A stretch of DNA of 64,000 nt, taken from NCBI RefSeq assembly GCF_050320075.1, contig NZ_CP190018.1. The stretch is one strand, 5' to 3'. How positions within the stretch are numbered: position 1 is the stretch's first letter; each line of letters opens with the position of its first letter. This DNA comes from Escherichia coli. Its GTDB lineage: Bacteria > Pseudomonadota > Gammaproteobacteria > Enterobacterales > Enterobacteriaceae. Of this stretch, positions 13,842 to 22,100 are shown piece by piece. The notes under the pieces were generated by a model. The model was not told where the DNA came from. It worked only from the letters and a program-made list of their open reading frames with translations, and ran no database searches. The position numbers were made by a program, and so were the translations under genes.

Positions 13842-14257
13842 GTTTTGCCCTGAAACTGGCGCGTGAGATGGGGCGACCCGACTGGCGTGCCATGCTTGCC
13901 GGGATGTCATCCACGGAGTATGCCGACTGGCACCGCTTTTACAGTACCCATTATTTTCATGATGTTCTGCTGGATATGCACTTTTCCGGGCTGACGTACA
14001 CCGTGCTCAGCCTGTTTTTCAGCGATCCGGATATGCATCCGCTGGATTTCAGTCTGCTGAACCGGCGCGAGGCTGACGAAGAGCCTGAAGATGATGTGCT
14101 GATGCAGAAAGCGGCAGGGCTTGCCGGAGGTGTCCGCTTTGGCCCGGACGGGAATGAAGTTATCCCCGCTTCCCCGGATGTGGCGGACATGACGGAGGAT
14201 GACGTAATGCTGATGACAGTATCAGAAGGGATCGCAGGAGGAGTCCGGTATGGCTGA
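13823..14257 (+). CDS. T: tail assembly protein T portion (expected to be made as G-T fusion by -1 frameshift)
   Basis: 144-codon open frame overlapping G 3' end, lambda gpT-like. Confidence 0.85.
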   Translation: MFDGELSFALKLAREMGRPDWRAMLAGMSSTEYADWHRFYSTHYFHDVLLDMHFSGLTYTVLSLFFSDPDMHPLDFSLLNRREADEEPEDDVLMQKAAGLAGGVRFGPDGNEVIPASPDVADMTEDDVMLMTVSEGIAGGVRYG

Positions 14258-16811
14258 ACCGGTAGGCGATCTGGTCGTTGATTTGAGTCTGGATGCGGCC
14301 AGATTTGACGAGCAGATGGCCAGAGTCAGGCGTCATTTTTCCGGTACGGAAAGTGATGCGAAAAGAACAGCGGCAGTCGTTGAACAGTCGCTGAGCCGAC
14401 AGGCGCTGGCTGCACAGAAAGCGGGGATTTCCGTCGGGCAGTATAAAGCCGCCATGCGTATGCTGCCTGCACAGTTCACCGACGTGGCCACGCAGCTTGC
14501 AGGCGGGCAAAGCCCGTGGCTGATCCTGCTGCAACAGGGTGGTCAGGTTAAGGACTCCTTCGGCGGGATGATCCCCATGTTCCGGGGGCTTGCCGGTGCG
14601 ATCACCCTGCCGATGGTCGGGGCCACCTCGCTGGCGGTGGCGACCGGTGCGCTGGCGTATGCCTGGTATCAGGGTAACTCAACCCTGTCCGATTTCAACA
14701 AAACGCTGGTCCTTTCCGGTAATCAGTCGGGTCTGACGGCAGATCGTATGCTGGTCCTGTCCAGAGCCGGGCAGGCGGCAGGGCTGACGTTTAACCAGAC
14801 CAGCGAGTCACTCAGTGCACTGGTTAAGGCGGGGGTAAGCGGTGAGGCTCAGATTGCGTCCATCAGCCAGAGTGTGGCGCGTTTCTCTTCTGCATCCGGT
14901 GTGGAGGTGGACAAGGTCGCTGAAGCCTTCGGGAAGCTGACCACTGACCCGACGTCGGGGCTGACGGCGATGGCGCGCCAGTTCCATAACGTGACGGCGG
15001 AGCAGATTGCGTATGTTGCTCAGTTGCAGCGTTCCGGCGATGAAGCCGGGGCATTGCAGGCGGCGAACGAAGCCGCAACGAAAGGGTTTGATGACCAGAC
15101 CCGCCGCCTGAAAGAGAACATGGGCACGCTGGAGACCTGGGCAGACAGGACAGCGCGGGCATTCAAATCCATGTGGGATGCGGTGCTGGATATTGGTCGT
15201 CCTGATACCGCGCAGGAGATGCTGATTAAGGCAGAGGCTGCGTTTAAGAAAGCAGACGACATCTGGAATCTGCGCAAGGATGATTATTTTGTTAACGATG
15301 AAGCGCGGGCGCGTTACTGGGATGATCGTGAAAAGGCCCGTCTTGCGCTTGAAGCCGCCCGAAAGAAGGCTGAGCAGCAGACTCAACAGGACAAAAATGC
15401 GCAGCAGCAGAGCGATACCGAAGCGTCACGGCTGAAATATACCGAAGAGGCGCAGAAGGCTTACGAACGGCTGCAGACGCCGCTGGAGAAATATACCGCC
15501 CGTCAGGAAGAACTGAACAAGGCACTGAAAGACGGGAAAATCCTGCAGGCGGATTACAACACGCTGATGGCGGCGGCGAAAAAGGATTATGAAGCGACGC
15601 TGAAAAAGCCGCAACAGTCCGGCGTGAAGGTGTCTGCGGGCGATCGTCAGGAAGACAGTGCTTATGCTGCCCTGCTGACGCTTCAGGCAGAACTCCGGAC
15701 GCTGGAGAAGCATGCCGGAGCGAATGAGAAAATCAGCCAGCAGCGCCGGGATTTGTGGAAGGCGGAGAGTCAGTTCGCGGTACTGGAGGAGGCGGCGCAA
15801 CGTCGCCAGCTGTCTGCACAGGAGAAATCCCTGCTGGCGCATAAAGATGAGACGCTGAAGTACAAACGCCAGCTGGCTGCACTTGGCGACAAGGTTACGT
15901 ATCAGGAGCGCCTGAACGCGCTGGCGCAGCAGGCGGATAAATTCGCACAGCAGCAACGGGCAAAACGGGCCGCCATTGATGCGAAAAGCCGGGGGCTGAC
16001 TGACCGGCAGGCAGAACGGGAAGCCACGGAACAGCGCCTGAAGGAACAGTATGGCGATAATCCGCTGGCGCTGAATAACGTCATGTCAGAGCAGAAAAAG
16101 ACCTGGGCGGCTGAAGACCAGCTTCGCGGGAGCTGGATGGCAGGCCTGAAGTCCGGCTGGAGTGAGTGGGAAGAGAGCGCCACGGACAGTATGTCGCAGG
16201 TTAAAAGTGCAGCCACGCAGACCTTTGATGGTATTGCACAGAATATGGCGGCGATGCTGACCGGCAGTGAGCAGAACTGGCGCAGCTTCACCCGTTCCGT
16301 GCTGTCCATGATGACAGAAATTCTGCTTAAGCAGGCAATGGTGGGGATTGTCGGGAGTATCGGCAGCGCCATTGGCGGTGCTGCCAGTGGTGGAGCATCC
16401 GCGTCAGGCGGTACAGCCATTCAGGCCGCTGCGGCGAAATTCCATTTTGCGACCGGGGGATTTACGGGAACCGGCGGCAAATATGAGCCAGCGGGGATTG
16501 TTCACCGTGGTGAATTTGTCTTCACGAAGGAGGCAACCAGCCGGATTGGTGTCGGCAACCTGTACCGCCTGATGCGGGGCTATGCGGAAGGTGGTTATGT
16601 GGGCGGTGCCGGAAGTCCGGCGCAGATGCGGCGGGCTGAAGGCATTAATTTTAATCAGAACAATCACGTGGTGATTCAGAACGACGGTACGAATGGTCTG
16701 CCAGGTCCACAGATGATGAAGGCAGTGTATGACATGGCCCGCAAGGGTGCCCGTGATGAAATTCAGGCACAGATGCGTGATGGTGGTCTGTTCTCCGGAG
16801 GTGGACGATGA
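14250..16811 (+). CDS. H: tail tape measure protein H
   Basis: 853 aa, coiled-coil-rich, lambda gpH length and position. Confidence 0.95.
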   Translation: MAEPVGDLVVDLSLDAARFDEQMARVRRHFSGTESDAKRTAAVVEQSLSRQALAAQKAGISVGQYKAAMRMLPAQFTDVATQLAGGQSPWLILLQQGGQVKDSFGGMIPMFRGLAGAITLPMVGATSLAVATGALAYAWYQGNSTLSDFNKTLVLSGNQSGLTADRMLVLSRAGQAAGLTFNQTSESLSALVKAGVSGEAQIASISQSVARFSSASGVEVDKVAEAFGKLTTDPTSGLTAMARQFHNVTAEQIAYVAQLQRSGDEAGALQAANEAATKGFDDQTRRLKENMGTLETWADRTARAFKSMWDAVLDIGRPDTAQEMLIKAEAAFKKADDIWNLRKDDYFVNDEARARYWDDREKARLALEAARKKAEQQTQQDKNAQQQSDTEASRLKYTEEAQKAYERLQTPLEKYTARQEELNKALKDGKILQADYNTLMAAAKKDYEATLKKPQQSGVKVSAGDRQEDSAYAALLTLQAELRTLEKHAGANEKISQQRRDLWKAESQFAVLEEAAQRRQLSAQEKSLLAHKDETLKYKRQLAALGDKVTYQERLNALAQQADKFAQQQRAKRAAIDAKSRGLTDRQAEREATEQRLKEQYGDNPLALNNVMSEQKKTWAAEDQLRGSWMAGLKSGWSEWEESATDSMSQVKSAATQTFDGIAQNMAAMLTGSEQNWRSFTRSVLSMMTEILLKQAMVGIVGSIGSAIGGAASGGASASGGTAIQAAAAKFHFATGGFTGTGGKYEPAGIVHRGEFVFTKEATSRIGVGNLYRLMRGYAEGGYVGGAGSPAQMRRAEGINFNQNNHVVIQNDGTNGLPGPQMMKAVYDMARKGARDEIQAQMRDGGLFSGGGR

Positions 16812-17137
16812 AAACCTTCCGCTGGAAAGTGAAACCCGGTATGGATGTGGCTTCGGCCCCTTCCGTAAGAAAGGTGCGCTTTGGTGATGGCTATTCCCAG
16901 CGAGCGCCTGCCGGGCTGAACGCTGACCTGAAAACGTACAGCGTGACGCTTTCTGTTCACCGTTGGGAGGCCACGGCGCTGGAGTCGTTTCTGGCTGAGC
17001 ACGGGGGCTGGAAGGCCTTTCTGTGGACGCCGCCTTATGAGTGGCGGCAGATAAAGGTGACCTGCGCAAAATGGACGTCGCGGGTCAGTATGCTGCGTGT
17101 TGAGTTCAGCGCAGAGTTTGAACAGGTGGTGAACTGA
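16808..17137 (+). CDS. M: tail tip protein M
   Basis: 109 aa, lambda gpM-like. Confidence 0.9.
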   Translation: MKTFRWKVKPGMDVASAPSVRKVRFGDGYSQRAPAGLNADLKTYSVTLSVHRWEATALESFLAEHGGWKAFLWTPPYEWRQIKVTCAKWTSRVSMLRVEFSAEFEQVVN

Positions 17138-17835
17138 TGCAGGATATCCGGCAGGAAACACTGAATGAATGCACCCGTGCGGAGCAGTCGGCCAGCGTGG
17201 TGCTCTGGGAAATCGATCTGACAGAGGTCGGTGGAGAACGTTATTTTTTCTGTAATGAGCAGAACGAAAAAGGTGAGCCGGTCACCTGGCAGGGGCGGCA
17301 GTATCTGGCGTATCCCATTCAGGGGAGTGGTTTTGAACTGAATGGCAAAGGCACCAGTACGCGCCCCATGCTGGCAGTCTCTAACCTGTACGGCATGGTC
17401 ACCGGGATGGCGGAAGACCTGCAGAGTCTGGTCGGCGGAACGGTGGTCAGGCGTAAGGTTTACGCCCGTTTTCTGGATGCGGTGAACTTCGTCAACGGAA
17501 ACAGCGATGCCGATCCGGAGCAGGAGGTGATCAGCCGCTGGCGCATCGAACAGTGCAGCGAACTGAGCGCGGTCAGTGCCTCTTTTGTACTGTCCACACC
17601 GACGGAAACGGACGGCGCTGTTTTTCCGGGGCGCATCATGCTGGCCAACACCTGCACCTGGACCTATCGCGGTGATGAGTGCGGTTATCACGGTCCGGCG
17701 GTCGCGGATGAATATGACCAGCCGACGTCCGATATCACGAAGGATAAATGCAGCAAATGCCTGAGTGGCTGTAAGTTTCGCAATAATGTCGGCAACTTTG
17801 GCGGCTTCCTTTCCATTAACAAACTTTCGCAGTAA
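17137..17835 (+). CDS. L: tail tip protein L
   Basis: 232 aa, lambda gpL-like. Confidence 0.9.
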   Translation: MQDIRQETLNECTRAEQSASVVLWEIDLTEVGGERYFFCNEQNEKGEPVTWQGRQYLAYPIQGSGFELNGKGTSTRPMLAVSNLYGMVTGMAEDLQSLVGGTVVRRKVYARFLDAVNFVNGNSDADPEQEVISRWRIEQCSELSAVSASFVLSTPTETDGAVFPGRIMLANTCTWTYRGDECGYHGPAVADEYDQPTSDITKDKCSKCLSGCKFRNNVGNFGGFLSINKLSQ

Positions 17836-17840
17836 ATCCC

Positions 17841-18584
17841 ATGACAGAGACAGAATCAGCGATTCTGGCGCACGCCCGGCGATGTGCGCCAGCGGAGTCG
17901 TGCGGCTTCGTGGTGAGAACGCCGGAGGGGGAAAGATATTTTCCCTGCGTGAATATCTCCGGTGAGCCGGAGGATTATTTCCGGATGTCGCCGGAGGACT
18001 GGCTGCAGGCAGAGATGCAGGGTGAGATTGTGGCGCTGGTCCACAGTCATCCCGGTGGTCTGCCCTGGCTGAGTGAGGCTGACCGGTGGCTGCAGGTGCA
18101 GAGTGATTTGCCGTGGTGGCTGGTCTGCCGGGGGGCGATTCACAAGTTCCGCTGTGTGCCGCATCTCACCGGGCGGCGCTTTGAGCACGGGGTGACGGAC
18201 TGTTACACGCTGTTCCGGGACGCTTACCATCTGGCGGGGATTGAGATGCCGGATTTTACGCGGGAGGATGACTGGTGGCGTCACGGTCAGAATCTCTATC
18301 TGGATAATCTGGAGGCCACAGGGCTGTATCAGGTGCCGTTGTCAGCGGCGCAGCCGGGCGATGTGCTGCTGTGCTGTTTTGGTTCATCGGTGCCGAATCA
18401 CGCCGCAATTTACTGCGGCGACGGCGAGCTGCTGCACCATATTCCTGAACAACTGAGCAAACGAGAGAGGTATACCGACAAATGGCAGCGACGCACACAC
18501 TCCCTCTGGCGTCACCGGGCATGGCGCGCATCTGCCTTTACGGGGATTTACAACGATTTGGTCGCCGCATCGACCTTCGTGTGA
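17841..18584 (+). CDS. K: tail tip assembly protein K (MPN/JAMM-like motif HSHPGG plus NlpC/P60-like C-terminal part)
   Basis: 247-aa ORF; a shorter lambda-style annotation would start at Met 17985, but the metalloprotease-like motif region argues for the long form. Confidence 0.85.
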   Translation: MTETESAILAHARRCAPAESCGFVVRTPEGERYFPCVNISGEPEDYFRMSPEDWLQAEMQGEIVALVHSHPGGLPWLSEADRWLQVQSDLPWWLVCRGAIHKFRCVPHLTGRRFEHGVTDCYTLFRDAYHLAGIEMPDFTREDDWWRHGQNLYLDNLEATGLYQVPLSAAQPGDVLLCCFGSSVPNHAAIYCGDGELLHHIPEQLSKRERYTDKWQRRTHSLWRHRAWRASAFTGIYNDLVAASTFV

Positions 18585-19123
18585 AAACGGGGGCTGAAGC
18601 CATCCGGGCGCTGGCCACACAGCTCCCGGCGTTTCGTCAGAAACTGAGCGACGGCTGGTATCAGGTACGGATTGCCGGGCGTGATACAGGTGAAACGGAA
18701 TTATCAGCCCGTCTTAATGAACCGCTGGCAAATGGTGCTGTGATCCATATCGTGCCGCGTCTGGCAGGAGCCAAAAGTGGCGGTGTGTTTCAGGCTGTGC
18801 TGGGGGCGGCTGTTATGGCGGTTGCTATATGGATGCCGGGGGTAGGAATTATGGCGAGTAATCTGCTGTTTTCTCTCGGTGCCAGTATGACGCTTGGCGG
18901 TGTTGCACAGATGCTGGCCCCTAAACCCAAAACCCCCCGCACACAGACAACGGATAACGGCAAACAGAACACCTATTTTTCTTCACTGGATAATATGGTT
19001 GCCCAGGGCAATGTTCTGCCCGTTCTGTACGGTGAAATGCGCGTGGGATCACGTGTGGTATCTCAGGAGATCAGCACAGCAGATGAAGGTGATGGTGGTC
19101 AGGTTGTGGTGATTGGTCGCTGA
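18482..19123 (+). CDS. I: tail tip assembly protein I
   Basis: 213 aa, overlaps K 3' end in another frame as in lambda. Confidence 0.85.
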   Translation: MAATHTLPLASPGMARICLYGDLQRFGRRIDLRVKTGAEAIRALATQLPAFRQKLSDGWYQVRIAGRDTGETELSARLNEPLANGAVIHIVPRLAGAKSGGVFQAVLGAAVMAVAIWMPGVGIMASNLLFSLGASMTLGGVAQMLAPKPKTPRTQTTDNGKQNTYFSSLDNMVAQGNVLPVLYGEMRVGSRVVSQEISTADEGDGGQVVVIGR

Positions 19124-19183: not shown

Positions 19184-22100
19184 ATGGGTAAAGGCAGCAG
19201 TAAGGGGCATACCCCGCGCGAAGCGAAGGACAACCTGAAGTCCACGCAGCTGCTGAGTGTGATCGATGCCATCAGCGAAGGGCCGGTTGAAGGTCCGGTG
19301 GATGGATTAAAAAGCGTGCTGCTGAACAGTACGCCGGTGCTGGACAGTGAGGGGAATACCAATATATCCGGCGTCACGGTGGTGTTCCGGGCCGGTGAGC
19401 AGGAGCAGACTCCGCCGGAGGGATTTGAATCCTCCGGTTCCGAGACGGTGCTGGGTACGGAAGTGAAATATGACACGCCGATCACCCGCACCATCACGTC
19501 GGCAAACATCGACCGTCTGCGCTTTACCTTCGGTGTGCAGGCACTGGTGGAAACCACCTCAAAGGGGGACAGGAATCCATCGGAAGTCCGCCTGCTGGTT
19601 CAGATACAACGTAACGGTGGCTGGGTGACGGAAAAAGACATCACCATTAAGGGTAAAACCACCTCGCAGTATCTGGCCTCAGTGGTGGTGGATAACCTGC
19701 CGCCGCGCCCGTTTAATATCCGGATGCGCAGGATGACGCCGGACAGCACCACAGACCAGCTGCAGAACAAAACGCTCTGGTCGTCATACACCGAAATCAT
19801 CGATGTGAAACAGTGCTACCCGAACACGGCACTGGTCGGCGTGCAGGTGGACTCGGAGCAGTTCGGCAGCCAGCAGGTGAGCCGTAATTATCATCTGCGC
19901 GGGCGTATTCTGCAGGTGCCGTCGAACTATAACCCGCAGACGCGGCAATACAGCGGTATCTGGGACGGGACGTTTAAACCGGCATACAGCAACAACATGG
20001 CCTGGTGTCTGTGGGATATGCTGACCCATCCGCGCTACGGCATGGGGAAGCGTCTCGGTGCGGCGGATGTGGACAAATGGGCGCTGTATGTCATCGGCCA
20101 GAATTGCGACCAGTCGGTGCCGGATGGCTTTGGTGGCACGGAGCCGCGCATCACCTGTAATGCCTGGCTGACCACGCAGCGCAAGGCGTGGGATGTGCTC
20201 AGTGATTTCTGCTCGGCGATGCGCTGTATGCCGGTATGGAACGGGCAGACGCTGACGTTCGTGCAGGACCGGCCATCGGATAAGGTGTGGACCTATAACC
20301 GCAGTAATGTGGTGATGCCGGATGATGGCGCGCCGTTCCGCTACAGCTTCAGCGCCCTGAAGGACCGTCATAATGCCGTTGAGGTGAACTGGATTGACCC
20401 GAATAACGGCTGGGAGACGGCGACAGAGCTTGTGGAGGACACGCAGGCCATTGCCCGTTACGGTCGTAACGTTACGAAGATGGATGCCTTTGGCTGTACC
20501 AGCCGGGGGCAGGCACACCGCGCCGGGCTGTGGCTGATTAAAACAGAACTGCTGGAAACGCAGACCGTGGATTTCAGCGTCGGCGCAGAAGGGCTTCGCC
20601 ATGTACCGGGCGATGTTATTGAAATCTGTGATGATGACTATGCCGGTATCAGCACCGGTGGTCGTGTGCTGGCGGTGAACAGCCAGACCCGGACGCTGAC
20701 GCTCGACCGTGAAATCACGCTGCCATCCTCCGGTACCACGCTGATAAGCCTGGTTGACGGAAGTGGCAATCCGGTCAGCGTGGAGGTTCAGTCCGTCACC
20801 GACGGCGTGAAGGTAAAAGTGAGCCGTGTTCCTGACGGTGTTGCTGAATACAGCGTATGGGGGCTGAAGCTGCCGACGCTGCGCCAGCGACTGTTCCGCT
20901 GCGTGAGTATCCGTGAGAACGACGACGGCACGTATGCCATCACCGCCGTGCAGCATGTGCCGGAAAAAGAGGCCATCGTGGATAACGGGGCGCACTTTGA
21001 CGGCGAACAGAGTGGCACGGTGAATGGTGTCACGCCGCCAGCGGTGCAGCACCTGACCGCAGAAGTCACTGCAGACAGCGGGGAATATCAGGTGCTGGCG
21101 CGCTGGGATACGCCGAAGGTGGTGAAGGGTGTGAGCTTTATGCTTCGCCTGACCGTGGCAGCGGATGACGGCAGTGAGCGGCTGGTCAGCACGGCCCGGA
21201 CGACGGAAACCACATACCGCTTCAGGCAGCTGGCGCTGGGAAGCTACAGGCTGACAGTCCGGGCGGCAAATGCCTGGGGGCAGCAGGGCGATCCTGCATC
21301 GGTATCGTTCCGGATTGCCGCACCGGCAGCGCCGTCGCGGATTGAGCTGACGCCGGGCTATTTTCAGATAACCGCCACGCCCCATCTTGCCGTTTATGAT
21401 CCGACGGTACAGTTTGAGTTCTGGTTCTCGGAAAAGCGGATTGCGGATATCAGGCAGGTTGAAACTACAGCCCGCTATCTTGGCACGGCGCTGTACTGGA
21501 TAGCTGCCAGTATCAATATCAAACCGGGCCATGATTATTATTTTTACATCCGCAGTGTGAACACCGTTGGCAAATCGGCATTTGTGGAGGCTGTTGGCCA
21601 GCCGAGTGATGATGCATCCGGCTATCTGGATTTTTTCAAAGGCGAGATAGGGAAAAGCCATCTGGCTCAGGAGCTGTGGACGCAGATTGATAACGGTCAG
21701 CTTGCGCCTGACCTGGCTGAAATCAGGACGTCCATTACGGATGTCAGCAATGAAATCACGCAGACCGTCAATAAGAAACTGGAAGACCAGAGTGCGGCAA
21801 TTCAGCAGATACAGAAGGTTCAGGTTGATACAAATAATAACCTGAACAGCATGTGGGCTGTGAAGCTGCAGCAGATGCAGGACGGACGCCTTTATATCGC
21901 GGGTATTGGTGCCGGTATTGAGAACACCCCTGACGGCATGCAGAGTCAGGTGCTGCTGGCGGCGGACAGGATTGCGATGGTTAATCCTGCGAATGGCAAC
22001 ACAAAGCCGATGTTTGTTGGTCAGGGCGATCAGATATTCATGAACGAAGTGTTCCTGAAATATCTGACGGCTCCCACCATTACCAGCGGCGGTAATCCTC

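Follow-up and report, generated by a model that had tools for sequence, protein, structure and literature searches.

The 247-residue form of the lambda-type tail assembly protein K in an Escherichia coli prophage and a likely origin of its 199-residue annotation

The window analyzed here is a stretch of 64,000 nucleotides of Escherichia coli DNA (assembly GCF_050320075.1, contig NZ_CP190018.1) and carries a lambda-type prophage tail operon with the gene order H-M-L-K-I-J (Table 1). The stop codon of L (TAA, 17833-17835) is followed after a gap of 5 nt (ATCCC) by the ATG of gene K; between the in-frame stop at 17817-17819 and this ATG there is no other start codon. This agrees with the original prediction, made from the sequence alone, that a 247-codon K frame directly follows L. 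The lambda-style start that the same prediction placed at the Met at 17985 was also located correctly: this ATG is the in-frame codon 49 of the K ORF, corresponds in the alignment to position 14276, where lambda K is annotated to start, and would yield a protein of 199 aa. The long form has a predicted mass of ∼27.5 kDa, against ∼22.5 kDa for the short form, and would begin with the N-terminal peptide MTETESAILAHAR. At the DNA level, the L-K-I region is 96 to 97% identical to lambda-group phages. A tblastn search of 50,697 phage records with the 247-aa protein matched 1751 of them, and the comparison of K with phrog_30 gave E = 5e-162; on these two grounds, membership of K in its family reflects homology and not chance. 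Elsewhere in the operon, H and M overlap by ATGA (16808-16811), and M and L have one base in common (17137). These overlaps and the 5-nt gap between L and K suggest translational coupling from one cistron to the next along the tail-tip genes. The K segment (17800-18600) is widespread in the species, being present at a coverage of at least 80% in 4346 of 5426 complete E. coli genomes, with a median of 3 and a maximum of 15 copies per genome.

Table 1. Coordinates, in window positions, of the genes, domains, predicted active-site codons, and translation signals at the K locus
Feature	Coordinates	Strand	Basis
Gene H	14250-16811	+	Tail operon, ORF list/Pfam
Gene M	16808-17137	+	Tail operon, ORF list/Pfam
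Gene L, minor tail protein L	17137..17835	+	ORF list; Pfam Phage_tail_L, 330 bits
L-stop/K-start junction, TAA-ATCCC-ATG	17833..17843	+	Sequence
Gene K, long form, 247 aa, ATG start	17841..18584	+	ORF list
JAB/JAMM (MPN+) metalloprotease domain of K, ∼residues 1-105	17841..18155	+	Pfam PF14464, PDB profile search, Foldseek
JAMM active-site codon E19	17895-17897	+	
Internal SD-like GGAGG (17969-17973) and ATG of codon 49 (17985-17987)	17969..17987	+	dG -9.5 kcal/mol, spacer ∼10 nt
JAMM active-site codon H68	18042-18044	+	
JAMM active-site codon H70	18048-18050	+	
JAMM active-site codon S78	18072-18074	+	
JAMM active-site codon D81	18081-18083	+	
NlpC/P60 (C40) cysteine peptidase domain of K, residues 111-224	18171..18512	+	Pfam PF00877
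NlpC/P60 catalytic codon C121	18201-18203	+	
NlpC/P60 catalytic codon H187	18399-18401	+	
NlpC/P60 catalytic codon H199	18435-18437	+	
Gene I, Ubl domain then C-terminal plug domain	18482..19123	+	ORF list; Pfam Lambda_tail_I, 86.7 bits
Gene J	from 19184	+	Tail operon, ORF list/Pfam

The long form of K carries two complete peptidase domains, as the original prediction had supposed when it preferred a protein with a JAMM-like and an NlpC/P60-like domain. In Pfam, Prok-JAB (PF14464) matches residues 4 to 98 of the long form with 49.4 bits against a cutoff of 25, whereas the short form scores 19.6 bits and falls under that cutoff. NLPC_P60 (PF00877) matches the long form with 50.4 bits against a cutoff of 23. 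Reading the sequence of the long form reveals a complete JAMM motif, E19 ... H68-S-H70-x7-S78-x2-D81, that conforms to the pattern E-x(n)-H-S/T-H-x7-S-x2-D (Ambroggio et al. 2003, PMC300881). The histidines lie in the HSHPGG stretch at residues 68 to 73 (nt 18042-18059), and the 199-aa form is without the JAMM Glu. In the NlpC/P60 half, C121, H187, and H199 supply the Cys, the His, and the third polar residue of the catalytic site.

Structural comparisons gave the same assignment. An AlphaFold model of K, based on 91 homologues, was obtained with a pLDDT of 97.2 and a pTM of 0.91. A Foldseek search with the JAB half of this model returned 5ld9, 5lda, 2kks, AMSH, Rpn11, and CSN5 with a probability of 1.00, which is consistent with an MPN fold, and the NlpC/P60 half matched MepS/Spr, LytE, C. 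difficile autolysins, 4hpe, and 9ubf, consistent with a papain-like fold. The first 48 residues of K contribute a helix (residues 3-15) and two strands (21-27 and 30-36), all modeled with a pLDDT of 97 to 98. In a profile search of the PDB, 2kks, 2kcq, and 5lda align from query profile positions 3 to 12, and the matches begin at about residue 5 of the best-matching chains. For 2kks and 2kcq the alignment starts at profile position 3 to 4 and includes the Glu-x-Cys-Gly segment with the catalytic Glu. The original prediction had held that the short start removes the region ahead of HSHPGG. This is correct but incomplete, because the catalytic Glu, the helix, and both strands are lost as well, and a JAB domain cut at its N terminus in this way would probably not fold.

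To what extent the catalytic residues are kept among homologues was counted in 96 representatives with less than 50% identity to K; the bin of 50 to 65% identity was left out, as it was contaminated by fragments and chimeric gene calls. The JAMM Glu, E19, is kept in 95 of the 96 representatives, H68 and D81 in all 96, H70 in 95, and S78 in 89, with Thr in the other 7. The NlpC/P60 residues are retained to a similar degree (C121 in 95/96, H187 and H199 in 94/96 each). Overall, the five JAMM residues are nearly invariant among homologues down to ∼30% identity. Selection was followed in 38 distinct close alleles; relatives at 94 to 98% identity were used for this polymorphism analysis and are unsuited to judging start conservation. 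Across K codons 2 to 48, the numbers of variable sites at codon positions 1, 2, and 3 are 10, 2, and 23 (pN/pS 0.275), and across codons 49 to 214 they are 25, 9, and 65 (pN/pS 0.076). The first 48 codons of K are thus protein-coding in the K frame, under purifying selection, and an integral part of the JAB domain in both its structure and its catalytic site. These data bear directly on the idea that the N-terminal JAB domain is a decaying remnant, that the NlpC/P60 domain alone matters, and that the choice of start is functionally irrelevant. Versions of TAPK that have only the NlpC/P60 domain are indeed mentioned by Iyer et al. 2006 (PMC1779556). With a near-invariant set of JAMM residues, purifying selection on codons 2 to 48, and a JAB fold modeled with very high confidence, we regard the probability of a decaying JAB as close to negligible.

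Start conservation was judged from the tblastn search on phages and from 12 annotated distant loci. Of the 1751 matched phage records, 1720 cover at least 80% of the 247-aa query, and the alignments begin at residues 1 to 10 in phages of Morganella, Stenotrophomonas, Burkholderia, Pseudomonas, Vibrio, Moraxella, Serratia, and Klebsiella, and likewise in HK022 and T1-like phages. In 11 of the 12 diverse loci, the K start lies 0 to 30 nt past the L stop or overlaps L; in the twelfth, Moraxella Mcat27, no L is annotated upstream of K. The start in these loci is usually found ∼10 residues ahead of a conserved 'I-x-x-H-A' helix, and many of them have a good Shine-Dalgarno (SD) sequence. The downstream Met, on the other hand, is poorly kept. 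Only 11 of the 96 representatives below 50% identity have Met49, with Ile in 64, and Ile also occupies this codon in 11 of 14 relatives at 80 to 90% identity. The alignment of homologues that had been proposed as a check therefore places the conserved start at the long form. A start and ribosome-binding site (RBS) conserved solely at the downstream Met, which had been named as the pattern that would speak against the long form, is not what the homologues display, since Met49 is mostly Ile.

The RBS inspection, also proposed as a check, came out the other way. No SD sequence precedes ATG 17841, where the best anti-SD duplex has a dG of +0.7 kcal/mol, and the internal GGAGG lies at a favorable position ahead of codon 49 (Table 1). 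Judged by the RBS alone, the sequence would favor the short start. In the phage 21 record, too, curators gave K no RBS while its neighbors received one. The absence of an SD sequence at ATG 17841 and its distance of 5 nt from the L stop lead us to infer reinitiation at this codon, and the L-K junction is likely a termination-reinitiation site, so the long start probably relies on translational coupling to L. Ribosomes finishing L would reinitiate at ATG 17841, and the resulting K expression would be low and coupled to L, as may suit a catalytic assembly factor.

With a GGAGG ahead of ATG 17985 and no SD ahead of 17841, gene callers often choose the short start. Most large protein clusters of the K gene consist of 247-aa proteins, and four clusters of 199-aa proteins (P0058, P0061, P0065, and P0066) together hold ∼11,000 member sequences. 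The 199-aa calls of P0066 and P0061 were traced to two contigs (L109 and L110) in which K retains its ATG and the whole of the long frame; since the long ORF is open in both, these products are gene-caller choices. The size of the 199-aa clusters, the strong GGAGG, and the short start annotated in the lambda RefSeq, DE3, and lambda imm434 records could all be taken to mean that the 199-aa protein is the only functional K and that the upstream 144 nt are an untranslated spacer or a dispensable leader. Those 144 nt nevertheless vary in a coding pattern and encode the near-invariant catalytic Glu together with a helix and two strands of the JAB domain, the Met that would have to serve as the start is Ile in most relatives, and the lambda annotation is accounted for by a 1-nt gap in the reference, as described below. 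We consider it very improbable that the short protein is the only functional K.

The internal signal is also compatible with a scheme in which, within the lambda subgroup, both proteins are made, namely full-length K coupled to L and a nested 199-aa K' comprising the NlpC/P60 domain and a crippled JAB domain. In such a scheme K' would be the more abundant product and would be without a functional JAB domain, and the ratio of K to K' would tune the processing of I in tail-tip assembly. The internal GGAGG and ATG occur together in 33 of the 38 close alleles, the internal SD is strong where the upstream start is intrinsically weak, and lambda has other nested genes on record, C/nu3 and S/S' (S107/S105). 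The conservation of the signal is less convincing. The internal GGAGG encodes a conserved Pro-Glu of K, which accounts for its presence, and it persists where the ATG is absent: a Stx-type relative retains GGAGG and has ATT at codon 49, and Ile is likewise found in most distant relatives. Among the 38 alleles, 4 weaken the SD with A instead of G at 17972 (GAG to GAA), 1 changes its first G to T at 17969, and 1 loses the ATG through an A to C change at 17985 that produces CTG. Given in addition the probable misfolding of a truncated JAB domain, we hold initiation at Met49 and a nested K', and with it any tuning of I processing by the K/K' ratio, to be unlikely.

We return to full-length K as the functional gene and to the source of the 199-aa annotation of lambda K. 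Aligned with the window, phage 21, and mEp332, the lambda reference (NC_001416/J02459) is one base shorter, at GGAGGC-TATTTCC, and is without a G after position 14266. The long K ORF is broken in the reference because this G is missing, and the frame from ATG 14133 ends after 76 codons. The 199-aa annotation follows from this 1-nt gap, with ATG 14276 left as the next plausible start for the downstream frame. The extra G, and with it an open 247-codon ORF from ATG 14133, is found in five independent lambda or lambda-derived sequences, namely LC730321 (Lambda_AGU), KT232076, PV340536, OM418626 (lambda imm434), and EU078592 (DE3). The curated lambda imm434 and DE3 records keep the short start despite the open long ORF, a choice that the internal GGAGG likewise explains. 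Exact matches to the reference over the gap stretch were found in four records, which are the reference itself twice, OR474059, and OR974322. OR474059, an 'UNVERIFIED' engineered strain, matches the reference at 100% identity over 24.5 kb. For OR974322 the identity to the reference is 99.988%, position 138 included, with Sam7 present and cI857 and ind1 absent. Judging from these identities, both were probably derived from the reference and would not be independent of it, and they were left out of the count of independent lambda sequences.

A whole-genome comparison of the reference with LC730321 revealed two compensating single-base differences in the left arm, at 138, where the reference has an extra G, and at 14266. 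Vendor documentation for lambda DNA presumably lists the same differences as those computed here, with one base deleted at 138 and a G inserted at 14266. We take UniProt entry P03729 to give lambda K as a protein of 199 aa. A literature search for a published note on a lambda reference correction at 14266 or on a sequencing error in gene K found none that was relevant. A programmed -1 frameshift at the gap was considered and rejected, as the surroundings of GAG GCT ATT TCC contain no slippery heptamer of the form X XXY YYZ, and the extra G is simply present in the five independent lambda sequences. The 199-aa K is best explained as the legacy of a one-base error in the 1982 lambda sequence, and a strain-specific mutation in the DNA sequenced at that time is the less likely origin of the gap.

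Several further observations concern irregular K records. LC730321 also has an extra C at 20833, which restores stf (Ur-lambda type). A profile of 76 positions described as 'unknown function', phrog_7305, matches K residues 1 to 76 (window 17841-18068), and its length is that of the 76-codon truncated frame of the lambda reference; phrog_7305 appears to have been built from frameshift-truncated K fragments. The mEp332 record (PV340541) has lost one nucleotide from the run of G in GGAGGGGG, aligned to window ∼17926-17932, and its K is annotated as a protein of 233 aa whose ATG is not in the K frame in other phages. The deletion probably reflects either a sequencing error in the homopolymer or a genuine frameshift.

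Gene I overlaps the final 103 nt of K in a different reading frame (window 18482-18584). In the 38 alleles, polymorphism changes sharply at this border: as far as 18479 it falls at third positions of K, and from 18490 onward at those of I. The substitutions in the overlap are silent in I and alter K, with a pN/pS of 6.75 for K codons 215 to 247. A C-terminal helix of K (residues 230-244) recurs in Morganella, mEp515, and Serratia homologues, and no K/I overlap is present in the Morganella phage. Gene I itself has two annotated starts, ATG 18482 in the lambda style and ATG 18521 (Met14), which RefSeq PGAP uses on the identical E. coli sequence. GAGAGG (dG -9.3) precedes ATG 18482, and no SD precedes ATG 18521. 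Of the three variable sites between the two starts, two fall at I third positions, which lends weak support to 18482.

The product of gene I is presumed to be the substrate or partner of K. The presence of a JAMM motif in K has been on record since 2003 (PMC300881), and the JAB plus NlpC/P60 architecture of K, together with its linkage to the Ubl N-terminal domain of I, was published in 2006 (PMC1779556). In that work, Iyer et al. proposed that K frees the Ubl domain of I by cutting after its C-terminal Gly (PMC1779556). The I protein of the window has a Lambda_tail_I (Ubl) domain at residues 14 to 97, followed by ...AGAKSGG. gpK is needed for tail assembly and is absent from virions by mass spectrometry and cryo-EM (PMC10721106, PMC12617516), and in the tail tip structure only residues 135 to 223 of gpI were resolved (PMC10721106). 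The Ubl domain ending in Gly-Gly and the partly resolved gpI would be consistent with a processing model. Since both predicted active sites are intact and conserved, we infer that K is a dual peptidase that, as the tip is assembled, may process I and perhaps a second tail protein. K would act on the product of the adjacent gene, most likely cutting after the Gly-Gly that ends the Ubl domain, so that just the C-terminal plug of I would remain in the tail tip. One check put forward by the original prediction, N-terminal proteomics of tail tips, is unsuited to K, because gpK was not found in virions (PMC10721106).

Comparison with known systems places the window K closest to lambda gpK, the TAPK of Iyer et al. 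2006, with which it shares the operon position in H-M-L-K-I-J, the JAB and NlpC/P60 domains, and the ∼103-nt overlap with I. Lambda-group K proteins (HK630, ev243, and ev207) have 96 to 98% protein identity to window K, and the corrected K of lambda itself is near-identical to it over the first 73 residues compared, with minor residue differences such as E3 versus Q3 and D45 versus A45. The difference lies in annotation: lambda gpK is given as 199 aa from ATG 14276 in NC_001416/J02459, whereas the frame of the window is intact at 247 codons. Among cellular JAMM proteins, Pyrococcus furiosus JAMM1 (5LD9/5LDA) and the archaeal desampylase HvJAMM1 have the complete E...HxH...S..D motif in common with K, and the fold of P. 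furiosus JAMM1 was matched by Foldseek with E = 6e-5 and a TM-score of 0.65 on the target. As with JAB/JAMM peptidases, the gene for K is linked to that of a ubiquitin-like beta-grasp protein ending in Gly-Gly, here gene I. Unlike JAMM1 and HvJAMM1, K has its JAB domain fused to NlpC/P60 and acts in phage tail morphogenesis, and its presumed substrate is the linear Ubl-fusion protein I and not an isopeptide conjugate. The Cys-His-His triad and papain-like fold are common to K, E. coli MepS/Spr, and B. subtilis LytE. In contrast to these two, K is without a signal peptide or a cell-wall-binding domain and is absent from virions, which makes a peptidoglycan-cleaving role at infection unlikely; the substrate of the K NlpC/P60 domain is probably a tail protein.

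Taken together, domain completeness, the conservation of catalytic residues, the start positions of homologues, and codon-position variation support the long form as the functional gene. With a probability of about 0.9, we conclude that 17841-18584 is a lambda-type prophage K of 247 aa starting at ATG 17841, that its product is a non-virion enzyme of tail-tip assembly with two predicted peptidase activities, and that the 199-aa K is an annotation artifact. A 247-aa K with JAB and NlpC/P60 domains is already known. For the window itself the analysis adds nothing new, as RefSeq already annotates a 100%-identical E. coli segment correctly, as a 744-nt 'C40 family peptidase' of 247 aa (WP_167784514.1). 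What is added to prior knowledge is an explicit origin for the short lambda annotation and the reason why gene callers repeat the short start.

The value of these findings lies mainly in curation. NC_001416 and J02459 still give a 199-aa K without the catalytic Glu of the JAB domain; the 2003 JAMM paper cited AAA96551, a truncated K (PMC300881), and a 2020 paper analyzed the truncated K of 199 residues (PMC7291167). With an in-frame GGAGG ahead of Met49, gene callers have repeated the short-start error in thousands of assemblies. The 247-aa form is the one to clone for testing K as a deubiquitinase-like protease on I.
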